56,633 nucleotides of DNA, taken from a virus. The position numbers and the translations under genes were made by a program. The stretch lies in IMG/VR virus record IMGVR_UViG_3300033182_000185. The stretch is one strand, 5' to 3'. Each line of letters begins with the position of its first letter. Position 1 is the first letter of the stretch. The notes under the pieces were generated by a model. The model did no database searches. It saw nothing but the letters and a program-made list of their open reading frames with translations, and was not told the DNA's origin. Of the stretch, positions 39,322-54,903 are shown in pieces.

Positions 39322-39581
39322 TATCCCTCTCCGTTTCTGTGGCTTTTCTTCACCTCAGACCAAGTGCTTAGGTATCCATTCTTTTTCTTGGCCTCGGCTA
39401 GAATCTCAGCATGCAATTCCAACTTAAAGTCATGCCACGTAAGCGCCCTACATGACTGCTCATCCGCGTCTATTTTAGGCACGTGCTCGTCTCTCTCCCA
39501 GCGGTCAGCTATCCGCCTATGGTACTTGCTCTTTACGTCAGCCCAAGCCAACATCCCAACCAACAGTTCCATTCTTTCCAT
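39321..39581 (-). CDS. Hypothetical protein
   Basis: ORF track, 86 aa, with SD TGGAGGTATC upstream of the ATG. Confidence 0.6.
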   Translation of the reverse strand: MERMELLVGMLAWADVKSKYHRRIADRWERDEHVPKIDADEQSCRALTWHDFKLELHAEILAEAKKKNGYLSTWSEVKKSHRNGEG

Positions 39582-39731
39582 GATACCTCCATAGTTTAAC
39601 GTGAAAGTGTGAGCAGTTTACCAGGATGAAGTCATGCTCAGGACTTACAATGAGCATACCCTCAATTAGAGGGGGGACAAACTGAAATTTGCCCTCTCTA
39701 ACTCATTGATTTTAAAGGGGAAAAATAGACC

Positions 39732-39774
39732 AAAAATGACATTATAGTACCCCCCCACCATAATGTTATTTTTT
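39732..39774 (-). terminator. Conserved palindromic element with a C7/G7 loop flanked by A5/T6 runs (copy 2; partner at 24264-24305); candidate intrinsic terminator
   Basis: aaaaatgacattatagta-ccccccc-accataatgttatttttt. In the minus sense it forms a 10-bp stem (one G-U), a G7 loop and then CATTTTT. It lies directly after the stop of the mini-ORF 39766-39912. Confidence 0.55.
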
Positions 39775-39912
39775 GTATCTCATTCGGGCAATGCGAGGCC
39801 TACCTGCACCACGCCTGATCTTGCGAATCTTTGGGTTTGACTTCCGCCTGGGCGCAGGCACAGCAGGCAACACCTCTACCCAAGCCGATACATCACGATC
39901 AAAGTATCTCAT
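39766..39912 (-). CDS. Small basic protein (48 aa) with an AT-hook-like GRP core
   Basis: Hand translation: MRYFDRDVSAWVEVLPAVPAPRRKSNPKIRKIRRGAGRPRIARMRYKK*. SD is AAGGAGGGC. It has a TAATG overlap with the upstream gene. Confidence 0.5.
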   Translation of the reverse strand: MRYFDRDVSAWVEVLPAVPAPRRKSNPKIRKIRRGAGRPRIARMRYKK

Positions 39913-40097
39913 TAGCCCTCCTTCTTCTCGTAGACAGACAAGTAACTGTTCAATCCATCCCTGAGCATGAATAAACTCTCAAGGTTGGGCGTTTCCTGGA
40001 TCAGGATTCTGACTATATGGCTAACTTGCGCCTCAGTCAGGCTTACATCTTTTTCCTGATAGAGATGATTTTCTTTGCCAATTTTAACTGATTGCAT
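39912..40097 (-). CDS. Hypothetical protein
   Basis: ORF track, 61 aa. Confidence 0.5.
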   Translation of the reverse strand: MQSVKIGKENHLYQEKDVSLTEAQVSHIVRILIQETPNLESLFMLRDGLNSYLSVYEKKEG

Positions 40098-40309
40098 TAA
40101 CCCCCCTCAATCTCAGTTTCTACCACCAGTTCAGCCATGTCGTAGTGGCCAAACGGCTCACCATAAGTGATCCACTTGCCAATACACCCATACATTCCAC
40201 GTTGCCAGACCCATATCTGCCATGAGTCGGGCAACCTTTCGATCCACCAGCCTTGTTCGATGATCGCCTGATCTTCTCGCTCAGCCTTTTGTCTCTTGAA
40301 GTATGTCAT
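40097..40309 (-). CDS. Hypothetical protein
   Basis: ORF track, 70 aa, with SD CCAGGAGGTGCAATG. Confidence 0.6.
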   Translation of the reverse strand: MTYFKRQKAEREDQAIIEQGWWIERLPDSWQIWVWQRGMYGCIGKWITYGEPFGHYDMAELVVETEIEGG

Positions 40310-40639
40310 TGCACCTCCTGGATTGTGGGTAATTAGTGGGCCTTTTTAGATGGTATACCCCATCACAGTCATGCCCAGGACTGGTGATACCCAGCATCAG
40401 ATGCCCTATCTACTGACCCCTCCGGAGCGGTTCAGAAGTATCACTTTGAAAAGTAGATCAGCGCAGGAGGTGTAGAACCCTCTTTAGATCGCATGGGGCC
40501 GACATCGCTCCCGTACCAGGATCAGGCCGGATTCTACTCTAGGCACACTCCGTTACCAGAGTGCCCATTTGTTAACCCACTGTGCCTCTCTACAAGTTGA
40601 CTGAGAGGATCACACTATTTCTAGTGTGAACCCCGCTGA
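40310..40639 (-). ncRNA. Candidate structured RNA segment A (330 nt, no ORF of 60 aa or more in any frame)
   Basis: The segment is GC-rich; for example, 40501-40560 has 34/60 G+C. Minus-sense hairpins include CACACUA-GAAA-UAGUGUG (40611-40628) and AGGCACA/UGUGCCU. Others are AUCACCAGUC/GACUGUGAU and UUCAAAGU-GAU-ACUUcUGAA. It shares a 14-mer and a 13-mer with segment B. Confidence 0.45.
40596..40615. repeat. Inverted repeat, arm 1 (pairs with 41186-41205; 19/20 complementary, the mismatch is a G-U in minus-sense RNA)
   Basis: gttgactgagaggatcacac compared with the reverse complement of gtgtgatcctctcaatcaac. The arms bracket ORF 40640-41146. Confidence 0.9.
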
Positions 40640-41146
40640 CTAGGCTGCTTCAGTGACTTCCTGCAACTGCGCCACTTCTGCCATCTTGTTCTGAAGTCCA
40701 TTGTAGGCCTCCAGAGCGTCGATGTACTGAATCCGCGCTTCAGATTCGTGCTTCTCGATCGCTTTGGTCATGCTCTCGAATGCCTTTTTCATCATCCAGG
40801 CAGACATGACTTCATCGGTCTCGAAGTCGTACCATTTGCGCGCAAACAGTTCATCCTGGTCGAACTTGAACTCTGATTTCTTGGCCTTCTTGAAGGTCAA
40901 TTTCTTAGAATCCCAGTTCACCTGGCACACCTCAGACACGAAGCCAATAAGTTTGGTCTTATTAACCCCGTTGACTTTGGTAATCTCCCGACAAAGCATG
41001 GAAAGATAGGTGCTATCCCCATGCTCAGCGTAGTGCCAAGCCGCGGATATAAACAAAGCATGCACCTTGTCTTGCCATTTCAGACCGCTTGTTACAGTCC
41101 GTTTGATTGCCGTGCCGAGGTCTTTTCCGATTTTGATGATTTCCAT
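40640..41146 (-). CDS. Hypothetical protein (168 aa) embedded in the structured RNA region
   Basis: ATG 41146 is preceded by GGAGAACCGCAACG. Sequence runs MEIIKIGKDLGTAIKRTV...KWQDKVHALFISAAWHYAEHGD... with a C-terminal coiled coil. The track TTG start at 41200 lies inside the inverted repeat and is rejected. Confidence 0.6.
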   Translation of the reverse strand: MEIIKIGKDLGTAIKRTVTSGLKWQDKVHALFISAAWHYAEHGDSTYLSMLCREITKVNGVNKTKLIGFVSEVCQVNWDSKKLTFKKAKKSEFKFDQDELFARKWYDFETDEVMSAWMMKKAFESMTKAIEKHESEARIQYIDALEAYNGLQNKMAEVAQLQEVTEAA

Positions 41147-41715
41147 CGTTGCGGTTCTCCGTTTGTCTCGTTGTAGATCACGGAAGTGTGATCCTCTCAA
41201 TCAACGCATATCCCTCACCGTTACCAGTTCCATTTTCAGGTTACAGACTAGGTTTGAGAATCAAGGTGCTCTTGAACTCTGGCTCAAACCCCGCTAAGAC
41301 CCCTACGCTTTCGCGAACATTCCCTAGCGGTATAACTAGCCTCATTCGGTCTTGTCGAACCCAGTCCTTCACCTCCCTATTGAGATGTTTAGTCAAATTT
41401 ACTCTTTGGAGTAACTGCATGGTAATCCGTGCATCCTGGATACCTGACGTTCTGGTTAATTAGTGGGTTCAGTCTCACATTATCGTTAAAGTTTGCCGTT
41501 TTTGCGCCCTATCCCGCAGGAATCATGGGGCCGACACTCTACCTTGCGGTAGGCAGTAACTAGCGAATCTGCTAACATTGACCGTCGCGTCATGGGTATG
41601 ACCGCTGATTTTTTGCTCTGGCTCAGCCCACGTTTTACGCACCGGGTTTCGTGGTACTCTCGCTCACCGTAGATGCGACTGCTTCTATGCATCTCTGGAG
41701 GGTCTTTCGCTCCAG
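41147..41715 (-). ncRNA. Candidate structured RNA segment B: a ~570-nt leader between the early promoter and the first ORF
   Basis: Minus-sense hairpins include CUACC-GCAA-GGUAG (41539-41552) and CCGCUA[...CGC-GAAA-GCG...]UAGCGG (41291-41330). Others are GGUUUGAG...UCAAG-AGCAC-CUUGA...CUCAAACC (41251-41290) and GAUCAC-ACUUCC-GUGAUC (41176-41193). Only one poor 68-aa ORF without an SD is present. Confidence 0.45.
41186..41205. repeat. Inverted repeat, arm 2 (pairs with 40596-40615)
   Basis: See arm 1. This arm lies about 40 nt upstream of ATG 41146. Confidence 0.9.
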
Positions 41716-41722
41716 TGCATTA

Positions 41723-41751
41723 AATATAGCAACACCAGCCCCCAATGTCAA
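41723..41751 (-). promoter_or_regulatory. Near-consensus sigma70 promoter of the early (minus-strand) arm
   Basis: Minus strand reads TTGACA (41751-41746), then a 17-nt spacer (ttgggggctggtgttgc), then TATATT (41728-41723). The predicted start is near 41715, immediately followed by the hairpin CTGGAG-cgaaagacc-CTCCAG. Confidence 0.7.
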
Positions 41752-41911
41752 CTTGACCCCTATATAAGCGTTTTAATATATTCGAATATTAGGATTTGGA
41801 AGGTACTCCGAGGGGTCTATCGGGGCGATCCAAGTCCAGGAATCCTGATGCGTAGCCCCATAAGACATAATAAAAAAACGACATTAACAACACACTTGCT
41901 GTTTACTAAGG

Positions 41912-42205
41912 ATTTAGTAATGTTGCAAAAAAACAACAATTGGTTGACTGGTATATATATATTGGTATAGAGTTATTTGGTATATAAAGCACTTTGGCTT
42001 AGCGGCAAATTTTTTTGGGGGGGGTATAATTAACAACGCACTAGCCTTTTACCAAGAGTTTAGTAATGGTATATAATTGGGTGTAATATTGGTATGTATA
42101 TAGGCTATTTTGGTATATAGGTAATAGATTAGCCGTTGGCTTAGCGGCCAATCGTATGGGTCCCATCCAGAAAATAGGGGTCCCAAAATTTTTTGGGGGA
42201 TATAC
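41912..42205. repeat. Origin-associated duplicated unit (~146 bp x2) carrying TGGTATA(T/G)A iterons
   Basis: Each unit has TTTAGTAATG (41913, 42059) and three TGGTATAKA copies (41949, 41963, 41978; 42067, 42090, 42111). Each also has TTGGCTTAGCGGC (41994-42006; 42136-42148) and a T-run/G-run (42010-42024; 42189-42199). Confidence 0.8.
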
Positions 42206-42206
42206 T

Positions 42207-42293
42207 TTATCCACAAGTTATCCACAGACTTATCCACAGGTTAAAAAGGTGGTAAATATATGATTTTAAATGGGAATCAGAAAGTTATCCACA
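42207..42293 (+). promoter_or_regulatory. Cluster of four perfect DnaA boxes (TTATCCACA), all in the same orientation
   Basis: Exact 9-mers lie at 42207-42215, 42218-42226, 42230-42238 and 42285-42293. Confidence 0.85.
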
Positions 42294-42307
42294 GGTAAGG
42301 GGTTCCC

Positions 42308-42393
42308 TTATTATAATATATATATTAATATATAATATATATATATTTATACTTCACTATATAATATATATTATATATATAATATTAATATAT
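42308..42393. other. AT-rich tract (candidate DNA unwinding element)
   Basis: 86 nt contain only three non-A/T bases (c at 42352, 42355, 42357). The tract is largely (TA)n-like and lies immediately beside the DnaA boxes. Confidence 0.7.
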
Positions 42394-42493
42394 CTTTGTC
42401 TTGTTCCATTTAGCAAAATATTGTGCAAGAATGCTAAAATATATGCTAAATAATTGATATCTTTAAAAAGTGTACAGCCTAGACCCCCCAATA

Positions 42494-42502
42494 TGGTATA
42501 AT
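42494..42502 (+). promoter_or_regulatory. Extended -10 element (TGGTATAAT), candidate promoter of the late (plus-strand) arm
   Basis: TGnTATAAT lies about 95 nt upstream of terS. No good -35 is present, which is acceptable for extended -10 promoters. The same TGGTATA core as the iterons makes the assignment ambiguous. Confidence 0.4.
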
Positions 42503-42523
42503 ATAAGTAAAGATTCGGGGCAC

Positions 42524-42584
42524 GTGTCGGCACCATCTCTCCCCTCGATAGAGGGTCCCTTCTCCCTTCTCGCTGACACGGCCC
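42524..42584 (+). promoter_or_regulatory. GC-rich stem-loop in the terS leader
   Basis: GGGGCaCGTGTC (42524-42535) pairs with GACACGGCCCC (42574-42584). This encloses the inner hairpin CCCTC-gata-GAGGG. No U-run follows. Confidence 0.45.
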
Positions 42585-42596
42585 CACTTTACACCT

Positions 42597-43064
42597 ATGG
42601 GGAATATGGCAGCAAATCCAGTTAAACGTAGACATGGCCAAGAAGTACACAAAAGTGTATGGACTACGGCCAACAAGAAAAAAGTAATTGAAATGTTCGG
42701 GGCAGGAGCAACCGTAATTGAGGTATGCAGGTTCCTGGGCATCCATAAAGCTACGTTCTATCGGTGGCTCAAGGATGAGCGCAAGAGTGATTTCCAGCGT
42801 ACTGTTGAGCTGGGTATCCAGGCATCAGAAGCACATTGGATTCAGGTCGGTAGAGACAACCTGGAAAACAAATCCTTTAATACCTCCCTGTATGCATTTA
42901 TGATGGTCAACAAATTTAACTATCGTTCCACCTATTCCAAACAGGAAGTGGACAAAACTGAAACCAAGAAAACTACAGTTGAAGTCAAGAAGGCCGTGGA
43001 TGTTGACTCTATCATTGACAAACTGAACGAAAGCATGGAGGAGAAGCCTGAGCTTCTGAACTAA
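42597..43064 (+). CDS. terS: Terminase small subunit (HTH DNA-binding)
   Basis: 155 aa with the HTH 'ATVIEVCRFLGIHKATFYRWLKD'. It is the first gene of the late arm. An alternative start is at 42606. Confidence 0.6.
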   Translation: MGNMAANPVKRRHGQEVHKSVWTTANKKKVIEMFGAGATVIEVCRFLGIHKATFYRWLKDERKSDFQRTVELGIQASEAHWIQVGRDNLENKSFNTSLYAFMMVNKFNYRSTYSKQEVDKTETKKTTVEVKKAVDVDSIIDKLNESMEEKPELLN

Positions 43065-43065
43065 T

Positions 43066-43182
43066 ATGCCTAAAGTAGGAACCAAAAAATTCGCGTATAC
43101 CAAGACTGGAATGAAGAAAGCCAAGCAATACGCTAAGACAAGCGGAAAGAAGGTCCAGAAGAAGCCTTCTAAGGGGTACTGA
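43066..43182 (+). CDS. Lys-rich mini-protein (38 aa)
   Basis: Hand translation: MPKVGTKKFAYTKTGMKKAKQYAKTSGKKVQKKPSKGY*. It fits exactly between terS and the next gene. Confidence 0.4.
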   Translation: MPKVGTKKFAYTKTGMKKAKQYAKTSGKKVQKKPSKGY

Positions 43183-43183
43183 T

Positions 43184-44452
43184 ATGCCTGGGTATAGTGG
43201 TGGAGGATGGGGTGGTGATGGCAAAGCCGATTATGGCGAGGGCATGGGTACAAAAGGTGCGGCAGCAGCAGATCATTCTATTGGTATGGGCGCAGGTAGC
43301 TCAGAAAGAGAAATGTCAATCTCTGCCTTTAGGGATGCTATTGCTAGGGCTATGGGAGTAACAGCTGTAACTGAACAAGAAGCTGTAAGCCAGGCTCAGA
43401 CAGAAGCGGAACTAGATGCTATTGCTAATGCAAGAGCAAGATCAGCGGCAGTAGAAGCCAGAGACAAGGCTCAGAGAGAAGCAAGGGAGCAGCAAGAACG
43501 CGAAGCTATGATGGCAGAAATTGAAGCCATGCAAAACGTAAGCAATTTTGCAACTCCAGCTCCAGCAACTAAAGCAGTAGACCTTGATTATTATGATTCC
43601 AGGTTTGCTTCTCCTTATAGCATGGTAGATGAAACAGAAATTGACCCTTCCATGTTCGATGATCCGTTAGATAACTCTCCAGTTACGCCATCACCGCTTG
43701 CCCATTTGTCTACATATCATGGACAAAATACGCGTAACTTTAATACAACTGGTTTTGACCCATCTAGATCAACTGGATTACACGATCCACAAGGTACTGA
43801 AGCAGGACTTGCAGCGGCTCAAGCGGCTATAGATGGCTTGTCTGCTGGAAGCCGGACTATTGGCGCTCATCCATCTAAAGACCCTCGAATAGGTCTTCCT
43901 CTAGGAACGGGTAGACCTTCTACAGATATTGAAAATAGAGAGCCTGTAGACATGTATGGGCGTGTAGCTCCTATTGAAGATATCGAAGACCCAGAAGAAA
44001 AAGCAGCCGCATATGAAATGTTGGGTAAACTTCAAAAAGCAGCCAAAGAAGCTAGAACCCCTTGGGGAAAAGCCTTGAATACTATTATGGGATATGCAAT
44101 AAATGCAGTTCCAGGAATAGGCACGCTTAATATGATAGGCACAGCAATCAAGGCAGGTCTAGCTAAAGCAGGAATGAATGTTGACCCTAATATTATAGGG
44201 CAAGCAATTAGAGCGGCTCATGAAATAACAACTCAAGGTCCTTTGGGAGCTGGAGGAGTTTCAGTAGGGGCAAGAAACGATGCTTTTATTGAAGAATTTC
44301 TTAGGAATATTCCAGCTTCCTCGTATGAAGAGCCTTGGATGAAAGGTCTTAGCGAAAGGCAAATTCAATACTATCTTGATAGACCATCAGAATTAGAATG
44401 GGTTCGTAATTTATGGAATAGTATGAATCCTTCAGGAGGTATGGGGCAATAA
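43184..44452 (+). CDS. Hypothetical protein (422 aa) inserted between the terminase genes
   Basis: ORF track. It has a Gly-rich N-terminus, a charged coiled coil (AQREAREQQEREAMMAEIEA) and a hydrophobic segment 'IMGYAINAVPGIGTLNMIGTAIKAGLA'. Confidence 0.65.
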   Translation: MPGYSGGGWGGDGKADYGEGMGTKGAAAADHSIGMGAGSSEREMSISAFRDAIARAMGVTAVTEQEAVSQAQTEAELDAIANARARSAAVEARDKAQREAREQQEREAMMAEIEAMQNVSNFATPAPATKAVDLDYYDSRFASPYSMVDETEIDPSMFDDPLDNSPVTPSPLAHLSTYHGQNTRNFNTTGFDPSRSTGLHDPQGTEAGLAAAQAAIDGLSAGSRTIGAHPSKDPRIGLPLGTGRPSTDIENREPVDMYGRVAPIEDIEDPEEKAAAYEMLGKLQKAAKEARTPWGKALNTIMGYAINAVPGIGTLNMIGTAIKAGLAKAGMNVDPNIIGQAIRAAHEITTQGPLGAGGVSVGARNDAFIEEFLRNIPASSYEEPWMKGLSERQIQYYLDRPSELEWVRNLWNSMNPSGGMGQ

Positions 44453-44486
44453 GCCTTATTTTTTACGGTGTACTAACGGTGTAACA

Positions 44487-44792
44487 ATGGAGAAAAAAAT
44501 GGTAACAAATCAATTACGGGCTATGGACCGAATGTTTGAACGCATGATGGGTATGACGGGTCACCGCACCCCTCTTGCAATGGTCGAATCAGCAATGGAC
44601 AGGATGGAGTCGGCGCTTAGCTCGATTCCAACTAATGGTGAACAATTCACGGTATGGAAGCTTACCCCTACGAAGTATAGGACAGAGCTTCAAGAGGATG
44701 GTTCCATCCTGTTCAAAGTTGTACCAGAGGGTGAGTTCTCTGACGAGCTGAAAGGGCCTGACGTAAAAAAAGATGCCGATAAAGAGGTGTAA
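44487..44792 (+). CDS. Hypothetical protein
   Basis: ORF track, 101 aa. Confidence 0.55.
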   Translation: MEKKMVTNQLRAMDRMFERMMGMTGHRTPLAMVESAMDRMESALSSIPTNGEQFTVWKLTPTKYRTELQEDGSILFKVVPEGEFSDELKGPDVKKDADKEV

Positions 44793-44910
44793 TCTAAAGA
44801 GCGGCAAAAAGGGTTACAAGTGGGGTGACAAAGGAAAATGTTACCCCACTCGTGCTCAAGCTGAAAAGCAAGCAGCCGCAGCTTATGCGTCTGGATACAA
44901 GAAAAAGTGA
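44773..44910 (+). CDS. Lys-rich mini-protein (45 aa)
   Basis: Hand translation: MPIKRCNLKSGKKGYKWGDKGKCYPTRAQAEKQAAAAYASGYKKK*. Its stop overlaps the terL GTG start. The SD is weak. Confidence 0.35.
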   Translation: MPIKRCNLKSGKKGYKWGDKGKCYPTRAQAEKQAAAAYASGYKKK

Positions 44911-46568
44911 TACCTGAGATAAGTAAAGATGTATATGCCAATACCAAAAATGCAGAGGCAGCAATTGCTCTCGCTAAGTGGGCGCAAACTGCTGAGTATG
45001 ATCAAGTGGTTGCTGCATATACTCAGTGTCACCGTGATCCTAATCTTGATGATACCTTTATTCGTACTCTTGGGCAGCTTGACAGGTATTACCTTGGCGT
45101 TTTTCTATGCAATCGCCACGACATGCTTCATCCGTGGATATATGAAAGATGCCGTGATGTCGAAAGTGAAAGAGATAGAAGACTCGACTTATGGGCGCGT
45201 TTTCACTATAAAAGTACTATAATAACTTTTCTTGGTTGTATACAAGAAATATTATGTAATCCAGATATAACAATCGGTATTCTGTCTTATTCGTCTAAGC
45301 AGGCAAAGCCATTCCTTAGGCAGATAATGCAGGAGCTTGAAGCAAATGAAAAGTTGCAGGGGTTATATCCAGACATCCTATACGAAAAGCCTAGGCAACA
45401 AGCTCCTAAATGGGCTGAGAACGAAGGCCTCTGCGTAAAGAGAAAGGCTAACCCAAAAGAACAAACAGTCGAAGCGCATGGTCTGGTAGACGGACAGCCT
45501 ACAGGCAGACACTTTGGCTTGATTGTATACGATGACGTTGTTGTACAGGAGAGTGTATCAACTCCAGAGCAGATTGCAAAGACAACAACTCAATGGGAAC
45601 TATCACTGAACCTTGGCTCAACACATAATCCAAGATATCAGTATGCAGGCACCAGGTATTCTTACGGTGATACCTATGGAACAATCCTGCAAAGAGCGGC
45701 TGTAAAACCTAGAATACATACCGCAACACATAACGGGCAGATGGATGGCATGCCTGTGTTTCTCCAGCCAGAGCGTTGGGAAGAAATTAAAAAAACGACA
45801 TCCACATATACCGTAGCCTGTCAGCAGCTCCTAAACCCAATCGCAGGTAGCGATGTTGCATTCAAGGATGAATGGTGGAGGGAGTGGGAGGTTAGACCGT
45901 ATACTATGAACGTATACATCATGGTTGACCCTGCCAGTTCTAAAAAGAAAGAATCAAATAGAACAGCTATGTGCGTAGTTGGTGTTGATGCCAACTATAA
46001 TAAGTTTTTGCTTGACGGAGTCTGTCATAGACTTAGCCTTTCCGAAAGATGGGATAATCTAAAAAAGTTAAGGTCTAAGTGGAAGCGAGCACCTGGAGTA
46101 AGAGAAGTAAAAGTTGGTTACGAAAGGTACGGCGCTCAAAGCGATATTGAACATTTCCAAGAGATGATGCGTATAGAGGGAAGTAGCTTCCCGATATATG
46201 AACTGAACTGGGTTGGTGGTGGAGGGTCACAATCCAAGAAGGATAGGATACAAAGACTGGAACCAGATTTAAAGGACGGTTCTTTCTTTTGGCCTTACCC
46301 AACAGACAAGAAGATGTTGACATCTTTGCAGATGGATCACATGGAAAGGAAACAAGAGTTTCTTTTATCCAGAAAGATTATGTGTAGAGATGAGAATGGT
46401 AGTGCTTACGATCTTACCAAGTGGGTAAAGGATAACGAATACAATCTTTTCCCGACAATTCACCCAGACTTTTTGGATGCTTTATCTAGAATCTATGACA
46501 TGGATGCTACACCTCCAATCCTTAGATCATATAGGAAATTGGAGCCTGAAGCAGAGGCAGCGTACTAA
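44907..46568 (+). CDS. terL: Terminase large subunit
   Basis: 553 aa with a GTG start. The N-terminal half looks like an ATPase and the C-terminal half like a nuclease ('IMVDPASSKKKESNRTAMCVVG'). The overall layout is typical of T7-like/podoviral TerL. Confidence 0.85.
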   Translation: MIPEISKDVYANTKNAEAAIALAKWAQTAEYDQVVAAYTQCHRDPNLDDTFIRTLGQLDRYYLGVFLCNRHDMLHPWIYERCRDVESERDRRLDLWARFHYKSTIITFLGCIQEILCNPDITIGILSYSSKQAKPFLRQIMQELEANEKLQGLYPDILYEKPRQQAPKWAENEGLCVKRKANPKEQTVEAHGLVDGQPTGRHFGLIVYDDVVVQESVSTPEQIAKTTTQWELSLNLGSTHNPRYQYAGTRYSYGDTYGTILQRAAVKPRIHTATHNGQMDGMPVFLQPERWEEIKKTTSTYTVACQQLLNPIAGSDVAFKDEWWREWEVRPYTMNVYIMVDPASSKKKESNRTAMCVVGVDANYNKFLLDGVCHRLSLSERWDNLKKLRSKWKRAPGVREVKVGYERYGAQSDIEHFQEMMRIEGSSFPIYELNWVGGGGSQSKKDRIQRLEPDLKDGSFFWPYPTDKKMLTSLQMDHMERKQEFLLSRKIMCRDENGSAYDLTKWVKDNEYNLFPTIHPDFLDALSRIYDMDATPPILRSYRKLEPEAEAAY

Positions 46569-46741
46569 TGGCAAGAACCAGAAAAATAGGCAGGAAAACA
46601 TACAAGCCTAGGCGCGTAGCCTACCAGATGACGAACTCTCGTAAGTTCTATGAGAAGCAACCAAGATCAATTCCTTATGGAGTGTTACCTTATGTGCAGC
46701 CTCTTTATTGGACTGCCGGTTATTGCGAGAATGAGTTATGA
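46568..46741 (+). CDS. Basic mini-protein (57 aa)
   Basis: Hand translation: MARTRKIGRKTYKPRRVAYQMTNSRKFYEKQPRSIPYGVLPYVQPLYWTAGYCENEL*. It has a TAATG overlap with terL and an ATGA overlap with the next gene. Confidence 0.45.
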   Translation: MARTRKIGRKTYKPRRVAYQMTNSRKFYEKQPRSIPYGVLPYVQPLYWTAGYCENEL

Positions 46742-47115
46742 AAAAGCTTCTCTTATGTTTGATTTTAATTGCTTCGCCTGTTTTGGCGCAGAGTCCACCT
46801 AAGAACCCGCCGATAGGTATCACACCTGTCCCTGTAAGGATGCAGTTATTCTGTGCTGATTCTTTTGAGTTTCTAATGAATGTGCTTGCCGCAGACTTCA
46901 AAGAGCATCCTGTTATGATGGGATACCTTAAAGAAGGGCCTGCCAATGCTCACACTATGGTCTATTTTGTCAACAAAGAAAAGACTACATCAACTTTGGT
47001 TGTGTCTAAGAAAAGCAAAGACAAAGAAGAAGCCTGCATTATATGGTCTGGTAAAAGTCCTAGCGGCATGGCGTTCTCTTTAAACCCTAATCCTATGTTT
47101 GCTGATGAATTATGA
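46738..47115 (+). CDS. Secreted (signal-peptide) hypothetical protein
   Basis: 125 aa with the signal peptide 'MKKLLLCLILIASPVLAQSPP'. Confidence 0.6.
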   Translation: MKKLLLCLILIASPVLAQSPPKNPPIGITPVPVRMQLFCADSFEFLMNVLAADFKEHPVMMGYLKEGPANAHTMVYFVNKEKTTSTLVVSKKSKDKEEACIIWSGKSPSGMAFSLNPNPMFADEL

Positions 47116-47342
47116 CTAATACTATTAATATACCGGGATACATGCTAGGCGCAATTGTTTTTATTATAGGCCAGACTAGCACTGCAATATGGTGGGCGTC
47201 TGGAATCTCAAGTGATGTTGCAATGCTAAAGCAGGATAGAGATGAGATGGAAGAGATCATCGAGCATCTTGATGTGCTTGCCTATCGTATGGAACACTTG
47301 GAGAAACTGATTCAAAGAGCATTTGGCCCAGAGATAAAGTAG
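47112..47342 (+). CDS. Single-pass membrane protein (holin/spanin-class candidate)
   Basis: 76 aa. A TM segment 'GYMLGAIVFIIGQTSTAIWWA' is followed by a charged helix. Confidence 0.5.
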   Translation: MTNTINIPGYMLGAIVFIIGQTSTAIWWASGISSDVAMLKQDRDEMEEIIEHLDVLAYRMEHLEKLIQRAFGPEIK

Positions 47343-47503
47343 TGGACACGCTTGATCTTGCTGATGTTATGGCAATGTGGCCGATCTTTCTGGGGTTCAT
47401 TACTTTAGTAGTAGTGTTAGCCAAGATGCACGCAGAGATTGATACACTAAAAGAAAAGGTAAAGACTCTCTTTAATTTATTCAACGCAAGAGATAAGAAA
47501 TAA
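47342..47503 (+). CDS. Single-pass membrane mini-protein (53 aa)
   Basis: Hand translation with a GTG start overlapping the upstream stop: VDTLDLADVMAMWPIFLGFITLVVVLAKMHAEIDTLKEKVKTLFNLFNARDKK*. It has the same TM-plus-helix layout as the preceding gene. Confidence 0.4.
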   Translation: MDTLDLADVMAMWPIFLGFITLVVVLAKMHAEIDTLKEKVKTLFNLFNARDKK

Positions 47504-47787
47504 TGGCAACAAAGAAAGACCCAAGGCTTTCAAGAGCAGGCGTATCTGGATTCAATAAACCAAAAAGAACTCCTAGCCATCCTACTAAATCTCATGTTGT
47601 TGTTGCCAAAGAAGGTGACAAGGTTAAAACTATACGGTTTGGACAGCAAGGCGTATCTGGTGCAGGGAAAAATCCCTCAAGTGCAAAAGAAAAAGCAAGA
47701 AGAAAATCATTCAAGGCTAGACACGCCAGTAACATAAACAAAGGCAAAATGTCTGCGGCTTATTGGGCTAACAAAGTTAAATGGTAA
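47503..47787 (+). CDS. Basic hypothetical protein
   Basis: ORF track, 94 aa, Lys/Arg-rich (KEKARRKSFKARHASNINKGKMSAAYWANKVKW). Confidence 0.55.
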   Translation: MATKKDPRLSRAGVSGFNKPKRTPSHPTKSHVVVAKEGDKVKTIRFGQQGVSGAGKNPSSAKEKARRKSFKARHASNINKGKMSAAYWANKVKW

Positions 47788-47989
47788 ATGAAACACAAGC
47801 GCTGGCTTCTAAAAATCTTGCAAGTATGCGGTGATTATAGGTGCTATTAACCGCAAGGTCAAGATAAATCACCATCTAAAAAATGGGTTAAAGGATCATG
47901 AAAGGCGTCCCTCATTATTTCAAATACTCATAAAACTCATAATAATGAAACGAAAATATGATACTTCAACTGGCCATAATAGGAGATAA

Positions 47990-48442
47990 AATGAAAGAAA
48001 AATGGAATTCTTTAGACAGAAAAGTAAAGGTTTGGGTGTTGGCTGGCGTAGCCGTTTTGGTCGTAGTTGCGGCTATCTGGGGCTAGTCCTAGGATTAATC
48101 GGATGCGGGACAGTAAAGAAAGCAGGGATAGTAGCGACAGCGGCAGGGACGGGTGCCGTTGCGGGGACTGTGTTCAGTGGGGGTGCGATTGCGCCGATAG
48201 TGGGAGCCACGACAAGTGCCTTTGTGGCAGATGTGGCGACAGGGGTGACGGATACGTCCCAGACTACTATGGATAGTTGCGCTCCTGATAACTTCTGGAC
48301 ATTGCTTGGTTCCCTTGTGGAAATGGGTGGTTGGTTGCTTATTCTTGTAGTGGTAATTCCAATGGTGCTTGGATGGTTTCTCCCCGGCCCTGTAAAAATG
48401 AAGGGAAGGGAGCCAAAACACCCAAACCCCTTAATGAGATAA
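47990..48442 (+). CDS. Lipoprotein with a C-terminal TM segment (unimolecular-spanin-like architecture)
   Basis: Track ORF extended 4 codons to the ATG preceded by AGGAGATAAA. It has a lipobox 'LVLGLIGC', a Gly/Ala/Thr-rich middle and a C-terminal TM 'GGWLLILVVVIPMVLGWFL'. Confidence 0.5.
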   Translation, partial: NERKMEFFRQKSKGLGVGWRSRFGRSCGYLGLVLGLIGCGTVKKAGIVATAAGTGAVAGTVFSGGAIAPIVGATTSAFVADVATGVTDTSQTTMDSCAPDNFWTLLGSLVEMGGWLLILVVVIPMVLGWFLPGPVKMKGREPKHPNPLMR

Positions 48443-48485
48443 CAAATAAATCAGAAGCCCCTATTTTTTATGTATAAATGTTATA

Positions 48486-49529
48486 ATGAGAGAGTATATA
48501 AAAGATTGCGTTAAATCTTTTTTGATTGTTCTTATTTACATTTTTGTTTTGCTTTGTGTAATGTACGTTTCTATAGGAAAAGCAGATTTTAGATCAACTT
48601 TTCTTATTGGTGAGCCAGAGGGCAGGTATATATCTCCATATTCCACGTTGTCTTGGTTGTCAAATGATTTAGATGACAACTGGAGACTTAGTGTTATAGG
48701 AAGAATAAGCGGCGATACCCACGCTGATATTATGGCCAGAAGTACAGCAATTGACTTTGGAAGAATTGATGGGGTTCATAGAGATAGTTGGCGGAATCGT
48801 ATTAGCATTCTGCGTTCTAATGGTGTTGTTCCGGTAGTATGGTTGATTTCTGATGACAGTCAACAAATATACGACAAAGGGTTAAGTAACCAGATTGATT
48901 ACCAAAGTCAAGTTGTTTCTGCGGTTGATGATGTTGTTAGCCATTATGTTGTTTGTCTTGAGTGTGACGAATATTACAGCCCTTCAGATGTATCTACGCT
49001 GATAGGGGAACTCAGGAAAAAAACAACTAAGCCAATAGGAGTGCATCTTACGCCGGGGGTTAAGGCTGAGTACATTAAGGATGCAGACATAATATACCTT
49101 CAAACAGGGTTTAACCTTAATGAGCAACAGTTCAGACAACAGATTGAGAAGGCTCTTCGGTTTGGAAAACCAGTTGTCGTATCTGAGTACCACCTCCAAG
49201 GAACGTCAGCAGGAGCGAGAGCGTTTGGCGACATTGCTTGCTCCTACCCCGGAGTTGTCGGAACAGGAAACGGAAGAGGAGCAACGTCTTGTCAGACCCT
49301 AGAGTGGGGGCAGACAAAGAAGAAAAAGTGGTATCAACGCCACGAAAAAGAGTTGATCGTTACTGGCATAGGGATTGCCACCCTTTACGCAATGTACAAG
49401 GTAAACCAAAAGCCAAAGATAGACCTCTATCTAAATGATAACGAATACGAGATAGGGCTAAATACAGGCGGATACAACTTAAGATATACTGAAGATAGGA
49501 TAGCCGCTACATATAGGATAGAATTCTAA
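48486..49529 (+). CDS. Membrane-anchored hypothetical protein (possible glycoside-hydrolase-like barrel; weak)
   Basis: 347 aa with an N-terminal TM 'FLIVLIYIFVLLCVMYV' and a second TM near aa 290. Alternating beta-strand/acid motifs include 'VVCLECDEY' and 'PVVVSEYH'. No SD is present, and the ATG sits inside a TGnTATAAT element. Confidence 0.45.
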   Translation: MREYIKDCVKSFLIVLIYIFVLLCVMYVSIGKADFRSTFLIGEPEGRYISPYSTLSWLSNDLDDNWRLSVIGRISGDTHADIMARSTAIDFGRIDGVHRDSWRNRISILRSNGVVPVVWLISDDSQQIYDKGLSNQIDYQSQVVSAVDDVVSHYVVCLECDEYYSPSDVSTLIGELRKKTTKPIGVHLTPGVKAEYIKDADIIYLQTGFNLNEQQFRQQIEKALRFGKPVVVSEYHLQGTSAGARAFGDIACSYPGVVGTGNGRGATSCQTLEWGQTKKKKWYQRHEKELIVTGIGIATLYAMYKVNQKPKIDLYLNDNEYEIGLNTGGYNLRYTEDRIAATYRIEF

Positions 49530-50116
49530 TGGCAACAATTACATTAAGAGAAACAAAAGGCAGTCCATTATCATTTGCTGAGATGGATAGCAACCTAACT
49601 AATCTTAATAACGATAAGTTAGAGGTTATTAATAACCTTAATGCTACTGGCACTATGGATGCTAATGCCGACTATATTGCTATATACGATGCAAGCACTA
49701 GCCAGAATAAAAAGATTCTTGCTAATGATACAATTTTTTTTAACAGAGCATTAGTAATCAAAGTCATTGCAGACACTCTTCCTACTTATGTTGGAGATGG
49801 CATAGCGAGGATTGTTCTTCCATCAAACTTTGATGGCCTAAATTTGAAATCAATTGGCGGTCATGTCTATACTCCCGGAGTAGGGTCAACAACTAATATT
49901 CAGGTTCACAATGAAAGCAAAGGTCAGGATATGTTAAGTACATTGCTTACCATTGATGCGGGAGAGAATGATTCAAGTACTGCCGCTACGCCTGCCGTTA
50001 TTAATACGTCTACTAATAATGTAAATGATGGTAATGTTATTAGATTTGATATTGACCAAATTGGTTCGACAACTGCGGCTAATGGCCTTGAACTTAGATT
50101 GGAGTTTGGCGCTTGA
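49529..50116 (+). CDS. Tail-fibre-like protein
   Basis: 195 aa. The N-terminus 'TLRETKGSPLSFAEMDSNLTNLN' is a pattern common at fibre N-termini. Confidence 0.45.
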   Translation: MATITLRETKGSPLSFAEMDSNLTNLNNDKLEVINNLNATGTMDANADYIAIYDASTSQNKKILANDTIFFNRALVIKVIADTLPTYVGDGIARIVLPSNFDGLNLKSIGGHVYTPGVGSTTNIQVHNESKGQDMLSTLLTIDAGENDSSTAATPAVINTSTNNVNDGNVIRFDIDQIGSTTAANGLELRLEFGA

Positions 50117-50952
50117 GCGGATTTAAGGGATACCCTCCCGGTGTACAGATACTTGCTCCTGTTCCAGATATATTTGTTGCAGTAAATACTGACCAAGAAG
50201 AAATTAGGAAAAATATAAAACATAATATTTCTCTTGGTTTAAAACAAGTAACTCCTCACGAAACCCAATGGAATCGTGAAGTTTGTTTAATTACAGGAGG
50301 CCCATCTTTAAAGGATACTTTTCATATTGTTGAGAAGCGAAAGAAAGATGGTGTTCCAATTATTGCGGTAAACGGAACGTATAAGTATTGCATTGAAAGA
50401 GGGGTTGATCCTTCTGCTTTTGTAATGCTAGACAGTAGAGAGTTTAACAATAGGTTTGTTGATCCAGTTAAAGATGGTTGTAAATATCTTATAGCATCTC
50501 AATGTCATCCATCAGTTTTTAAGAAACTAAAGGATAGGGATGTTTGGTTGTGGCATTGCGATACTCAAGAAGAAAACATTGACCTTCTTCGTGATCAATA
50601 CGGAAAAGAATATATAGATTTTTTTCCTATCATGGGAGGCTCTACAGTAACCCTAAGAGCGTTACACTTACTTAGGATACTGGGCTTTCATAAGTTTGAG
50701 ATTTTTGGTTTTGATAGTTGTATCATGGATCATCACCACGCTTATGAACAGCCAGAGAATGACAAAGAGCAAGAGATAGATTTGGTTGTAGGTGGGAAGC
50801 AATTCAGATGTACTGTAGCCCATTATCATCAAGCAAAAGAGTTTGTTCAGTTAGTCGGCGCTACTGGATCAAACTATGATCTTATAGTTCATGGTGATGG
50901 ACTTATATCACATATTATTAAAAATCCAGAATCTTTAAAGGAGGCGGCTTAA
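50113..50952 (+). CDS. DUF115 (MptE/Maf-like) protein, putative glycosyltransferase
   Basis: 279 aa with 'CLITGGPSLKD', 'IIAVNGTYKYCIERGVDPSAFVMLD' and 'GGSTVTLRALHLLRILGFHKFEIFGFD'. Confidence 0.55.
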   Translation: MSGFKGYPPGVQILAPVPDIFVAVNTDQEEIRKNIKHNISLGLKQVTPHETQWNREVCLITGGPSLKDTFHIVEKRKKDGVPIIAVNGTYKYCIERGVDPSAFVMLDSREFNNRFVDPVKDGCKYLIASQCHPSVFKKLKDRDVWLWHCDTQEENIDLLRDQYGKEYIDFFPIMGGSTVTLRALHLLRILGFHKFEIFGFDSCIMDHHHAYEQPENDKEQEIDLVVGGKQFRCTVAHYHQAKEFVQLVGATGSNYDLIVHGDGLISHIIKNPESLKEAA

Positions 50953-51396
50953 ATGGCGGCTACAGCATGGAGTTTTTACAACAGTTTCAGAGAATATCTG
51001 GGCAACGGACAGTTTGACCTAGACGGCACTGGGACTGGTTTTTATATGGCGCTTCATACAAGTGCGGCTAGTGCAAATGTTAACAACGTAGCGTTGTCAA
51101 CGCAAGCCTCTCTTGGTAACGAAGTGGCTAATGGTAATGGGTACGCTACTGGTGGTAAATCAGTTACGGCTCGTACTTGGGCATCCGCCGCTACAAACAA
51201 GTATCGGTTTGATTCCACTGCTTGTGTTTGGACTGCAACTGGCGGAGACATCAATAACGTCAAGTACGCTGTAATCTACCAAGATGGCGGCAAGTTGGTG
51301 TGTTGGTCACGACTTACTACTTCTCAGTTTAACTTAACCCAAAATAATACACTTACCGTTACGCCTAGTTCTAACGGTATCTTTGAACTTACGTAG
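50953..51396 (+). CDS. Hypothetical tail-module protein
   Basis: ORF track, 147 aa. Confidence 0.55.
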   Translation: MAATAWSFYNSFREYLGNGQFDLDGTGTGFYMALHTSAASANVNNVALSTQASLGNEVANGNGYATGGKSVTARTWASAATNKYRFDSTACVWTATGGDINNVKYAVIYQDGGKLVCWSRLTTSQFNLTQNNTLTVTPSSNGIFELT

Positions 51397-51404
51397 GAGG
51401 AGTC

Positions 51405-51671
51405 ATGGCATTAGAATCAGCATCGTGGGTAACGCAATTAAATACGTCAAACCCCACCACATCTGACCCTGTTAGTGAGGGCGATGATCATCTCCGAATG
51501 TTGAAAACCGTTCTTCAGAATAGTTTTCCTTCTACTTCGACTGCCGCTATTATTCCTAACGTATCTGGGCAGTCTGGTAAATATCTAACCACAGACGGCA
51601 CTGACACTTCATGGGGAACCGTAACAGCGGCTAGTCCCGGCTTTGCAGTCGCTATGGCTATTGCTTTATAG
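51405..51671 (+). CDS. Short protein with a tail-fibre N-terminal-type motif
   Basis: 88 aa with SD GGAGGAG. It contains 'SWVTQLNTSNPTTSDPVSEGDDHLRMLKTVLQNSFP', the fibre-anchor-like 'GDDH(I/L)R..K' pattern. Confidence 0.5.
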   Translation: MALESASWVTQLNTSNPTTSDPVSEGDDHLRMLKTVLQNSFPSTSTAAIIPNVSGQSGKYLTTDGTDTSWGTVTAASPGFAVAMAIAL

Positions 51672-51680
51672 GGGATACAA

Positions 51681-52013
51681 ATGGCACAGGACTTTGAACG
51701 AGCATACTCATCTGCCGTAGGCACTAGTGAGGCAACTCTGTTAACTAGCAACTCAGATGATGCGTTGATTGGTATTCGGGTTACCAACATTCTTTCATCT
51801 GCTGTTACCTGCGATTGCTACATTGATGCAACTGGCGCGGGTACTGACTATCACATCTGTAAAGGACTTACGATTCCGCCTAACTCATCTGTTGAGTTGA
51901 TTCAGGGCGGCGCAAAGATCGTAATTCAAAGCGGCGATATTCTTCATGCGAAATCAAACACTGGGTCTGCTCTGGACATTTGGGTTTCGTATGTAGATAG
52001 CATTTCTACATAA
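51681..52013 (+). CDS. Hypothetical tail-module protein
   Basis: ORF track, 110 aa. Confidence 0.5.
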   Translation: MAQDFERAYSSAVGTSEATLLTSNSDDALIGIRVTNILSSAVTCDCYIDATGAGTDYHICKGLTIPPNSSVELIQGGAKIVIQSGDILHAKSNTGSALDIWVSYVDSIST

Positions 52014-52022
52014 GGGGGCGAC

Positions 52023-52196
52023 ATGGCTGAAGTAGTTAATGGGAACCAGTATATTGGGCAAGAGCCTGCAAAGGATGGGTTCTATATTCATCAGGCTACT
52101 ATTGATGGTGACTACACCATTGAATCAGCCGTGCTTGCAGGGCCAGTTACTCTGACAGGAACCGTCACTGTAACTGGTACATTGGTGATCGTATGA
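52023..52196 (+). CDS. Small hypothetical protein (57 aa)
   Basis: Hand translation: MAEVVNGNQYIGQEPAKDGFYIHQATIDGDYTIESAVLAGPVTLTGTVTVTGTLVIV*. It has an ATGA overlap with the next gene. Confidence 0.45.
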   Translation: MAEVVNGNQYIGQEPAKDGFYIHQATIDGDYTIESAVLAGPVTLTGTVTVTGTLVIV

Positions 52197-52768
52197 GTAC
52201 GCTAAATGTAAATGCAATTGACAAAGAGTCAGGCTCAACTCTGACTCTCGGAACTAGCGGGACAACCGTAGACATCCCATCCGGCGCAACCATTGACGCA
52301 ACAGGAGCCACGGTAACAGGTTTTGGTTTGTTCTCATCTTACGCCATCATCGCAGATCAAAAATCTCAGAATACAGCGGGTGGCACATTTACTTCTGGCG
52401 CATGGCGAACAAGAGATTTAAATACTGAAATTGCTGACCCTGATGGGATTGTTTCTATTTCCTCAAATCAGTTTACGTTGGGTGCGGGAAATTATTTGAT
52501 TCGGTGGGGTTGCCCATCTTATGCAGTCCAACGGCAACAATCCCGCCTATATAACACTACAGATTCTTCCGTTGATGGTATTAGTATGGTCAACTATTCA
52601 GCGGTTGCTTGGGTTTCCCAAGGATCAACAAGGTTGGTTATTACTGGTTCAAAAACATTTGAACTACAGCATAAATGTGACACTACATATTCGACCAATG
52701 GCTTTGGTTATGCTGCCAACATTGGCACAGAACAATACACTACAGTCGAAATCTTCAAGGAGGCGTAA
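52193..52768 (+). CDS. Tail fibre / receptor-binding-like protein
   Basis: 191 aa. The N-terminus 'STLNVNAIDKESGSTLTLGTSGTTVDIPSGATIDATGATVTGFG' is followed by a beta-rich C-terminal domain. Confidence 0.55.
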   Translation: MSTLNVNAIDKESGSTLTLGTSGTTVDIPSGATIDATGATVTGFGLFSSYAIIADQKSQNTAGGTFTSGAWRTRDLNTEIADPDGIVSISSNQFTLGAGNYLIRWGCPSYAVQRQQSRLYNTTDSSVDGISMVNYSAVAWVSQGSTRLVITGSKTFELQHKCDTTYSTNGFGYAANIGTEQYTTVEIFKEA

Positions 52769-52977
52769 TGGACATCAATCTTTGTATACATCATTTGGGT
52801 CTTAACGCCAATCAGTATCGGCTAAACCAATCACCACCCCCACATGAAATCATTGAGTGGAACGGTGACGCCCCACAACCAACACAAGCAGAACTGGAAA
52901 CAGCATGGGCTGAGATTGAGGCTGATGCTGATTATCAAGCGTATCTTGCCGATCCGACAGCGAGGTATCCGAAGTGA
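52768..52977 (+). CDS. Small fibre-associated (chaperone-like) protein
   Basis: 69 aa, acidic, ending in '...ARYPK'. It shares its position and C-terminal motif with 53597-53899. Confidence 0.45.
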   Translation: MDINLCIHHLGLNANQYRLNQSPPPHEIIEWNGDAPQPTQAELETAWAEIEADADYQAYLADPTARYPK

Positions 52978-53600
52978 GTAGCGAACTAAAGACAAACAAG
53001 ATCAGCCCTGCCACAGGGACGGCGCTGACCCTAGCAGATTCTGGCGATACTCTGACGTTGCCGTCAGGAGCGACACTCGACATTGCATCAGGCGCGACGA
53101 TCACGAACAGTGGGACAGCGACAGGGTTTGGAAAGGTGTTGCAAGTTGTTCAGACAGTAAAGAGCGATACCTTTTCCACCACATCAACCTCTTATGTGGA
53201 TGTCACAGGATTATCGGCAACGATTACCCCATCAAGCGCATCAAATAAGATTGTCGTGTCGGTGAACATTATCCCCAATAATTCTCACACGGCCTATTTC
53301 TTCAAGTTATTCCGTGATTCTACTGAAATTGGATCAGGCGATGCGGCGACAAGTCAAGAGCCGTGTTTTACCAGCGGCACGTCAGGTGGTTCGACTAGTG
53401 GCGGGGGTTACTATGGACTGGAACAAAGAGGCATTGAATATTTAGATTCACCAAGCACAACGTCTGCAACGACTTACAAAATTCAATGTCGTTCCCACAA
53501 TAGTTCTTATACAACCTATCTTAATCGCACTGTCTTTAACGCAGACGAATTTAACGGTAGAGGAATCTCAACCGTAACTTTATGGGAGATAGAAGGATGA
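52974..53600 (+). CDS. Tail fibre / receptor-binding-like protein
   Basis: 208 aa. The N-terminus 'LKTNKISPATGTALTLADSGDTLTLPSGATLDIASGATITNSGTATGFG' is homologous to that of 52193-52768. Confidence 0.55.
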   Translation: MSSELKTNKISPATGTALTLADSGDTLTLPSGATLDIASGATITNSGTATGFGKVLQVVQTVKSDTFSTTSTSYVDVTGLSATITPSSASNKIVVSVNIIPNNSHTAYFFKLFRDSTEIGSGDAATSQEPCFTSGTSGGSTSGGGYYGLEQRGIEYLDSPSTTSATTYKIQCRSHNSSYTTYLNRTVFNADEFNGRGISTVTLWEIEG

Positions 53601-54899: not shown

Positions 54900-54903
54900 A
54901 ACA

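Follow-up and report, generated by a model that had tools for sequence, protein, structure and literature searches.

A structured leader RNA of about 510 nucleotides at the head of an early operon in an uncultured marine phage lineage

The IMG/VR virus record IMGVR_UViG_3300033182_000185 is a phage-like genome of about 56.6 kilobases (kb); its whole stretch of 56,633 nucleotides (nt) was analysed here and is referred to as the window. An initial annotation of positions 40310–41751, made from the letters of this DNA, had proposed that a consensus early promoter on the minus strand drives large structured RNA in two non-coding blocks around a single open reading frame (ORF). The sigma-70 promoter (41723–41751, minus strand) is as described, with a –35 TTGACA at 41751–41746, a 17-nt spacer in which TG precedes the –10, and a –10 TATATT at 41728–41723. 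It scores 11/12 and is the top site of a scan of 39500–43200. The two hexamers keep their positions in all clades and the spacer sequence is variable. From this spacing we infer that transcription starts near 41716, about 7 nt past the –10 and one base ahead of the first leader helix, H1. The upstream block (41716–41147) indeed offers some 570 nt without a credible ORF, since the largest ones, of 68 and 59 amino acids (aa), are not conserved. It is followed by a 168-aa ORF (ORF168, ATG at 41146 to 40640) and by 330 nt (40310–40639) that hold no ORF of 60 aa or more. Comparison with relatives indicates that the upstream block is a genuine structured RNA, the leader, and that it represents an RNA family not catalogued before, restricted to one uncultured marine podophage-like lineage. 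The same comparison points to a 20-base pair (bp) duplex, missed in the initial annotation, which links the two blocks and brackets ORF168.

Homologues were collected through the ORF168 protein and by searching metagenomes for an invariant DNA motif. The contigs come from Tara and other marine metagenomes, and the sample comprises 17 distinct leaders in about five sequence groups, with 62–90% identity between groups. The blocks had been called GC-rich on counts of 34/60 and 10/60, both of which are exact; the upstream and downstream blocks have G+C contents of 0.49 and 0.52, compared with 0.415 in the remaining minus arm. Single-sequence folding energies are only modestly below those of shuffles (z = –1.5 upstream and –2.4 downstream), so the case for structure rests on the comparison with relatives. 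The structured body spans about 510 nt (41206–41716, minus strand) and contains at least 14 helices supported by covariation among the 17 homologues. In transcript order these include H1 (41715–41695), H2a (41654–41628), H4 (41552–41539), the H5/H6 core (41536–41494), H8 (41444–41421), H9 (41414–41399), H10 (41387–41370), H12/H12i (41330–41291), H13/H14 (41290–41251) and H15 (41249–41226), plus a candidate helix H2 with a GCCAGAG loop (41627–41604), whose pairing is tentative. The four hairpins singled out earlier, H4, H12/H12i, H13/H14 and Hpost (40634–40605), which follows ORF168, all lie where they had been placed.

A MAFFT alignment of the type A and type B variants is unreliable for H8–H10, and the covariation statistics refer to a curated set of 14 helices, 77 pairs and 1171 cells. 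Standard pairs occupy 95.0% of these cells compared with 85.4% in shuffles, and none of 500 shuffles reached as high a value. Two-sided changes occur at 28 of the 77 pairs, against 1–5 when the 3' partners are slid by 1–3 columns, and the covariation score is 0.267, against 0.03–0.07 in these slid-partner controls. RNAalifold, run on six sequences, found compensatory changes at 23 of 88 pairs. The excess of G.U over A.C cells (71 versus 20) indicates that the fold belongs to the minus-sense transcript. Individual helices illustrate the pattern: H1 exists as CUGGAG/CUCCAG, CUGGAA/UUCCAG, CUGGAU/AUUCAG, UGGGAA/UUCCCA and UGGAAA/UUUCCA, H13 in eight versions that are each fully paired, H14 as UCAAG/CUUGA, UCGUG/CACGA and UAGUG/CACUA, and H5 in five versions. 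The hairpins H2a, H4, H10 and H12i are whole in some lineages and cleanly missing in others, the neighbouring helices being intact. Between the helices, unpaired motifs are invariant: CGAAAGACC, GCCAGAG (twice), GAUCAUACC, GCCCCAU...GGGAUAGGG and AAUGU.

Two checks had been proposed with the initial annotation, a cmsearch against Rfam and covariation in homologues, and on both counts the idea of a large structured non-coding RNA made from the early promoter is borne out for the upstream block. Rfam 15, which covers ROOL, GOLLD, group I/II introns, RNase P, tmRNA, 6S, C4, riboswitches and small ribozymes among others, has no match at gathering thresholds anywhere in the window, and at E ≤ 10 over 39900–42400 it returns only two chance-level matches, both outside the leader folds. 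Literature searches found nothing relevant on large structured phage RNAs of this kind. That the blocks are instead coding, for small proteins or through an alternative genetic code, is extremely unlikely. The 68- and 59-aa ORFs of the window's leader are what this explanation has in its favour, but the position and frame of such ORFs vary between homologues, two of which have none of at least 30 aa, so that no small ORF is conserved in the leader. All three stop codons occur in every frame, and insertions and deletions are whole hairpins rather than multiples of three. Stop-codon recoding was considered separately and excluded, TAA, TAG and TGA being mixed in all three frames.

The window's own leader is a mosaic with a boundary at 41298. 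Its 3' part (41298–40595) is 92% identical to the homologous locus L001, and its 5' part is closer to L006, L007 and L061 than to L001, which suggests that recombination occurs inside the RNA, between domains. Two candidate sources of further homologues were discarded: a 16-mer from the hairpin H17, described below, matched four extra IMG/VR loci, all by chance, and one metagenome match (L056) falls inside a bacterial gene.

The arms of the predicted long-range duplex are GUUGAUUGAGAGGAUCACAC at 41186–41205 and GUGUGAUCCUCUCAGUCAAC at 40596–40615 on the minus strand, and 41205–41186 pairs with 40615–40596 at 20 of 20 positions. A repeat finder reports them as an inverted repeat that flanks ORF168 with 568 nt between the arms, and RNAalifold applied to the whole transcript also predicts the pairing. 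GUUAUUUGUGAGAAUCACAC and GUGUGAUUCUCACAGAUAAC are the corresponding arm sequences of the other protein clade. All 20 bp are paired in 15 of 15 sequences; four positions differ, every one of them compensated (slid controls gave 0), and a single U.G is retained in both arm versions. Of the four compensated positions, three fall in no local hairpin and are thus explained by long-range pairing alone. The duplex has the dimensions of an RNase III substrate, namely at least 20 bp, or about two turns, of nearly perfect double-stranded RNA.

Each arm also takes part in a local hairpin that competes with the duplex. On the 5' side, H17 (GGAUCAC-ACUUCC-GUGAUCU, 41175–41194, minus strand) keeps its 7 pairs in every sequence, and one pair has changed on both sides (a variant reads GAAUCAC...GUGAUUC), its 3' partner lying outside the duplex. 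On the 3' side, Hpost (40605–40634, minus strand) is a conserved hairpin with a GAAA tetraloop and two compensated positions, GGGGUUCACACUA-GAAA-UAGUGUGAUCCUC in one version and GGGAUUCACACUG-GAAA-CAGUGUGAUUCUC in the other. Because H17 and Hpost covary on their own, besides the duplex, the comparative data show that both alternative pairings are maintained. The loop and 3' side of H17 contain an invariant UUCCGU (41185–41180), complementary to the Shine-Dalgarno (SD) sequence and termed here the anti-SD. With H17 intact, the SD of ORF168 is essentially free in the predicted fold; with the 5' arm removed, UUCCGU pairs with this SD (ACGGAG, 41162–41157) in the minimum-energy fold.

The gene enclosed by the duplex, ORF168 (40640–41146, minus strand), is a member of phrog_1448 (profile match E = 5e-17, residues 3–164). 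Its AlphaFold model (predicted local distance difference test, pLDDT, 85) is helical with a small beta-hairpin. ORF168 has no Pfam hit, no sequence match in the PDB and no fold match there; in BFVD the fold matches proteins that are uncharacterised, from ICP2 and from SP6-like, phiKMV-like and other phages. Distant homologues, aligned over the full length at 22–28% identity, occur in Autographiviridae, and no family member falls between 63% and about 30% identity. In these phages the gene is the first or second at the left end and sits behind 1.0–1.4 kb of unannotated DNA, as in phi Xc10, RSB1 and Aristophanes. Neither a leader RNA counterpart (by nhmmer or covariance model R1) nor ORF-flanking inverted repeats were found at the distant loci, which suggests that the RNA is an acquisition of the marine lineage. 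The first 48 nt or so of ORF168 (16 codons, 41146–41099) show no synonymous change between clades whose proteins are 63% identical, and this argues that RNA-level constraint runs into the coding region.

These genomic contexts bear on two explanations in which the RNA itself would have no specific role. The first is that the DNA itself is conserved, as an origin-adjacent or regulatory element or because ORF168 is a mobile cassette with inverted repeats at its termini. In its favour, some 500 bp separate the region from DnaA boxes and an AT-rich tract, and a 20-bp inverted repeat does flank the ORF. However, the wobble bias is confined to one strand (71 G.U against 20 A.C cells, and the conserved U.G in the duplex), GNRA loops appear in the transcript sense only, and the duplex arms covary three ways with the local hairpins. 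ORF168 carries no transposase or nuclease signature, and its distant homologues have no flanking repeats. We regard conservation at the DNA level as very unlikely. The second explanation is a structured spacer without a specific function, folded only as a protection against Rho and RNases, or simply DNA that enters the cell before expression begins. T7-like genomes have non-coding left ends, and the Autographiviridae homologues of ORF168 likewise stand behind long unannotated DNA; the free gain and loss of hairpins would also suit a spacer. Yet a spacer leaves unexplained why loop and junction sequences are invariant across lineages whose leaders differ by 20–38%, and why the same helices are retained through compensatory change, and the Autographiviridae left ends have no counterpart of the RNA. 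A mere spacer is therefore improbable.

The interpretation that we favour, at roughly even odds (a probability of about 0.5), is a cis-acting, processed early-operon leader RNA with a translation switch. Host RNA polymerase would start near 41716, and its first product would be the ~510-nt non-coding RNA, which would adopt the conserved multi-helix architecture with its invariant loop and junction motifs. The local hairpins H17, before the ORF, and Hpost, after it, would form first and ORF168 would be translated; once the ORF has been transcribed, the 20-bp flank duplex would replace both hairpins. Being of RNase III-substrate length, the duplex may be cut, which would set the folded leader free as an RNA of its own and give an ORF168 mRNA with paired ends. 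Formation or cutting of the duplex would also release the anti-SD UUCCGU to cover the SD of ORF168, so that the first gene would be translated only in an early burst. For the leader body itself we favour a cis action on the transcribing or decaying machinery, which would shield the operon of 18.5 kb, and the promoter-proximal RNA that is untranslated over more than 1 kb, from Rho and decay.

A cis role is favoured because the leader is the first RNA of the operon's only strong promoter, because the long untranslated stretches are all in the first 4 kb, and because no RNA polymerase was matched among the ~25 larger ORFs scanned. Intergenic gaps elsewhere had been put at 0–60 nt, which holds roughly, except for three further minus-arm gaps of 102–184 nt; all the long non-coding gaps of this arm fall within the promoter-proximal 4 kb. 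The sole convincing strong minus-strand terminator lies at 23235–23209.

Several points weigh against the favoured interpretation. This is a narrow family of about five sequence groups, and its covariation statistics are not fully separable from phylogeny. The duplex has two haplotypes only, which amount to one evolutionary split, and its four compensated changes are not independent. The start site, the RNase III cleavage and the stability of a released leader are all predictions. The divergent terS-side operon has a different leader hairpin, unlike the putL/putR and nutL/nutR pairs. Finally, ~500 nt and 14 helices far exceed any known cis antitermination or anti-Rho RNA, an argument for a role that is more elaborate and possibly trans-acting or catalytic.

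Size and complexity fit a trans-acting RNA that binds a machine, is catalytic or self-assembles at least as well as a cis regulator. Made first in infection, such an RNA might inhibit a host factor or defence system or serve as its decoy, or it might be a ribonucleoprotein scaffold, a ribozyme or an ornate RNA like ROOL and GOLLD; its position as an mRNA leader would merely secure early expression. Size and helix count are closer to ribozymes and ornate RNAs than to cis regulators, the unpaired motifs are strictly invariant, several loops are GNRA tetraloops, and the duplex could free the leader as a discrete species. Phages, moreover, usually place host-takeover and anti-defence functions close to the promoter. 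Against this, we found no partner, target complementarity or oligomerisation motif and no match to a ROOL, GOLLD or ribozyme model, and the leader stays duplex-coupled to ORF168 in every contig long enough to hold both. A trans-acting function is, in our assessment, possible but less likely than the cis role.

Comparison with known systems places the leader close to ornate phage RNAs and to processed early leaders, and it belongs to none of these. HK022 put and lambda nut are cis antitermination RNAs that lie just downstream of an early promoter, serve a long operon dependent on host polymerase and act before any phage protein; the put RNA, present in each early operon, has about 70 nt and two hairpins and renders RNA polymerase terminator-resistant. 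Our leader shares the position directly downstream of the early promoter of a long operon, but with ~510 nt and at least 14 helices it differs from put in scale and has no sequence resemblance to it. It does not qualify as a put-type antiterminator, its architecture being different and the terS-side leader an unrelated single hairpin. RNase III stems are formed by the flanks of the 16S and 23S rRNA precursors and by T7 early sites such as R0.3, and T7 cuts its early leader from gene 0.3 by RNase III. As in these stems, a duplex of ~20 bp drawn from both sides of a functional unit would excise that unit and leave paired ends. T7 sites are, however, local irregular hairpins, whereas the arms of the leader duplex are 568 nt apart and compete with local hairpins, and cleavage here is a prediction only. 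P4 CI RNA and P1/P7 c4 are antisense immunity RNAs of less than 100 nt, processed from early-operon leaders of temperate phages. The likeness is that of a regulatory RNA processed out of an untranslated early leader; the Rfam C4 model gives no match here, and target repeats were not found.

To our knowledge, bacterial and phage RNAs of more than ~400 nt with complex conserved folds are rare, and beyond rRNA, RNase P and introns only a handful is known, such as OLE, GOLLD, ROOL, HEARO and raiA, each of which opened new biology or structure. ROOL and GOLLD are large ornate RNAs of phages and prophages with structures from cryo-electron microscopy (PMC12286853). The leader is like them in its several hundred nt, many helices, GNRA loops and phage carriage, in having no conserved coding partner and in that no function has been assigned. 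It is unlike them in giving no covariance-model match at E ≤ 10, in being the 5' leader of an mRNA rather than a neighbour of tRNA genes (the window has no tRNA; ROOL and GOLLD are marked by association with tRNA genes or prophages and by homo-oligomeric assembly), in being duplex-coupled to a gene, and in its restriction to one marine phage lineage, where we know it from sequence. The leader is unusually ready for experiment: its promoter and gene partner are defined, the proposed switch in processing and translation can be tested, and the 17 natural variants outline a secondary structure. It also suggests a way in which a phage that apparently brings no polymerase may secure the first transcript it makes.

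The downstream block does not bear out the initial annotation, which had counted it, too, as candidate large structured RNA. Conservation ends at 40596, directly past the duplex arm. L061 and L058, the closest relatives, lack the body of the block (~40579–40312), and in them a 70-aa ORF comes almost at once. Other sequence replaces it in L001 and L039–L049; the slot is short in L001 and L039 and holds a different block of ~310 nt in Tara contigs. The stretch 40312–40579 (minus strand, ~268 nt) is thus a strain-specific insertion, absent from the closest relatives and replaced in others. The comparison indicates that the downstream block is a later insertion of shuffled 5' untranslated region modules, outside the conserved RNA.

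The modules of the insertion are a hairpin with a GUAA tetraloop (40565–40542), a partial copy of the central domain of the leader (40506–40400, GAUGUCGGCCCCAUG ... GUAGAUAGGGCAUC), an H-type pseudoknot (PK1) and, after PK1, the SD AGGAGG of the 70-aa ORF (40319–40314), all on the minus strand. The domain copy accounts for the motifs reported as shared by the two blocks, which are both present at the places given for them: CATGGGGCCGACA and GGKTAATTAGTGGG are among the four colinear k-mers (UGUCGGCCCCAUG, GAUAGGGC, CCCACUAAUUA and AUCCAGGA) that join the insertion to 41536–41434 of the leader. Sharing of CATGGGGCCGACA is above chance (0/100 shuffles reached the observed number of matches), and that of GGKTAATTAGTGGG is weaker (7/100). 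In the copy, the H6 hairpin is swapped for a longer insert. In relatives (L006:3710-4085 and its equivalent in L002), the gap after a small MYYDKE... ORF is likewise non-coding, enlarged to ~370 nt and hairpin-rich, and carries the same pseudoknot. Junctions between early genes in this lineage act as slots into which non-coding modules are shuffled. Among T4-type phages, PeSL cassettes are mobile DNA modules with a promoter and a terminator stem-loop in hyperplastic regions. In both cases short non-coding modules are shuffled between early-gene junctions and give strain-specific intergenic insertions; here, unlike in PeSL cassettes, what is shuffled is folded RNA (the hairpin, the domain copy and the pseudoknot), accompanied by an SD.

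The pseudoknot is a by-product of the leader analysis. PK1 (40334–40386, minus strand) consists of AGUC-C-UGGGCA-U-GACU, a linker that holds a hairpin, and AAAAAGGCCCA, and covariance model R2 finds exactly two significant copies in the window: PK1 (22.5 bits, E = 9e-4) and the near-consensus PK2 (39607–39649, minus strand; 39.1 bits, E = 8e-8). PK2 sits beyond 40310–41751 in the next non-coding gap, ~25 nt upstream of the ATG at 39581, and the PK1 hairpin AGUCCUGGGCAUGACU recurs at 39645–39630. The pattern AGUCCUGRGYAUGACU is present in at least 120 IMG/VR contigs, where ~16 are expected by chance; the instances outside the window are loci L065-L182 and L183:1201-1231. The consensus, of ~35 nt, is AGUC-C-UGRGYA-U-GACU, a linker of mostly 5–9 nt, and AAA(A)CURCYCA, the loop hexamer pairing with the tail. 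Among 114 unique instances, the variable position is A-U in 83, G-C in 26, G.U in 3 and unpaired in 2. Pairing scores of at least 11/12 are reached by 66 of the 114, against 3 of 114 when shuffled. Wobble pairs outnumber A.C pairs by 57 to 3, which indicates that the pseudoknot is a sense-strand RNA.

The instances lie upstream of genes, about half of them 10–40 nt ahead of an SD-like site with its start codon, or just a few bases in front of a tRNA gene; five copies occur in one contig. In Arthrobacter phage Molivia the pseudoknot occupies the gap between the SSB gene and tRNA-Gly, and phages of Bacillus, Mycobacterium, Paracoccus and Synechococcus carry it too, so that its sequence is found almost letter for letter in phages of Actinobacteria, Firmicutes, Proteobacteria and Cyanobacteria. 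Near-identity across these phyla suggests contact with universally conserved host machinery. No Rfam 15 model matches the pseudoknot, and its sequence was not found in a literature search. A stricter, longer pattern was nearly absent from 596 gigabases of species-representative prokaryotic genomes, giving 15 contigs, of which 14 are titled metagenome-assembled genome (MAG) and the other is a metagenome bin; none comes from an isolate. The short stem 1, one-nt loop, A-rich loop 3, stem 2 formed with the tail and placement just upstream of an SD resemble the preQ1-I riboswitch and the T4 gene 32 pseudoknot. The pseudoknot differs from both in sequence and in also standing directly before tRNA genes, which is unexpected for a translational riboswitch. 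We can imagine, though we think it rather unlikely, that the leader is the founder of a new class of ~500-nt tertiary-folded phage RNAs which are released by RNase III and have an activity of their own (catalytic, machine-binding or self-assembling), and that, separately, the pseudoknot is a pan-phage functional RNA with a role in processing or end-protection before genes and tRNAs in phages of many bacterial phyla.

A nearby origin, as claimed, is plausible upstream of the early promoter, where four DnaA boxes of consensus sequence (TTATCCACA, 42207–42298) are followed by an AT-only tract of ~100 bp in the zone 42207–42400. This zone, between the divergent operons, is likely a host-DnaA-dependent replication origin. 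A perfect 12-bp palindrome, ATATTCGAATAT (41778–41789), stands ~30 bp upstream of the –35; it is kept in the L002–L005 clade as GAATATTCGAATATG and almost kept in L001 as AATATTTGAATAT, and looks like a putative operator. Between the early promoter and the DnaA boxes there are two direct repeat units (41883–42010 and 42029–42152), ~146 bp apart, which both contain ATTAACAAC...TTTAGTAATG, TGGTATATA and TTGGCTTAGCGGC.

The terS-side operon has its own conserved leader (42505–42600, plus strand), in which a long hairpin (z = –4.85) with compensatory changes in relatives lies downstream of an extended –10 promoter (TGGTATAAT, ~42494–42502). Within the hairpin lies CCCUUCUCCCUU, a pyrimidine tract that is invariant and could mask the SD. 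A third copy of GUCGGCNCCAU in this leader was considered as a shared protein-binding site and dropped, the resemblance not being kept in other clades.

The two divergent arms of the genome part at 41750–42600. The minus arm (41200 to 23458) encodes an ATPase, an HNH-type endonuclease-family protein, a primase/helicase, Erf, an exonuclease, SSB, NinB and a ribonucleotide reductase. The plus arm (42597–56633 and 513–23009) carries a terS-like gene, terL, the portal and structural genes. No tRNA or tmRNA was detected in the window, and blastn of the region against 50,697 phage records (INPHARED) gave no DNA-level match. The nearest cultured relatives of TerL are those of VpV262-type vibriophages and cyanophages, at 22–27% identity. 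Giant virion proteins of podophages sometimes contain injected enzymes; here a single ORF of 2741 aa (14784–23009, plus strand) closes the structural arm.

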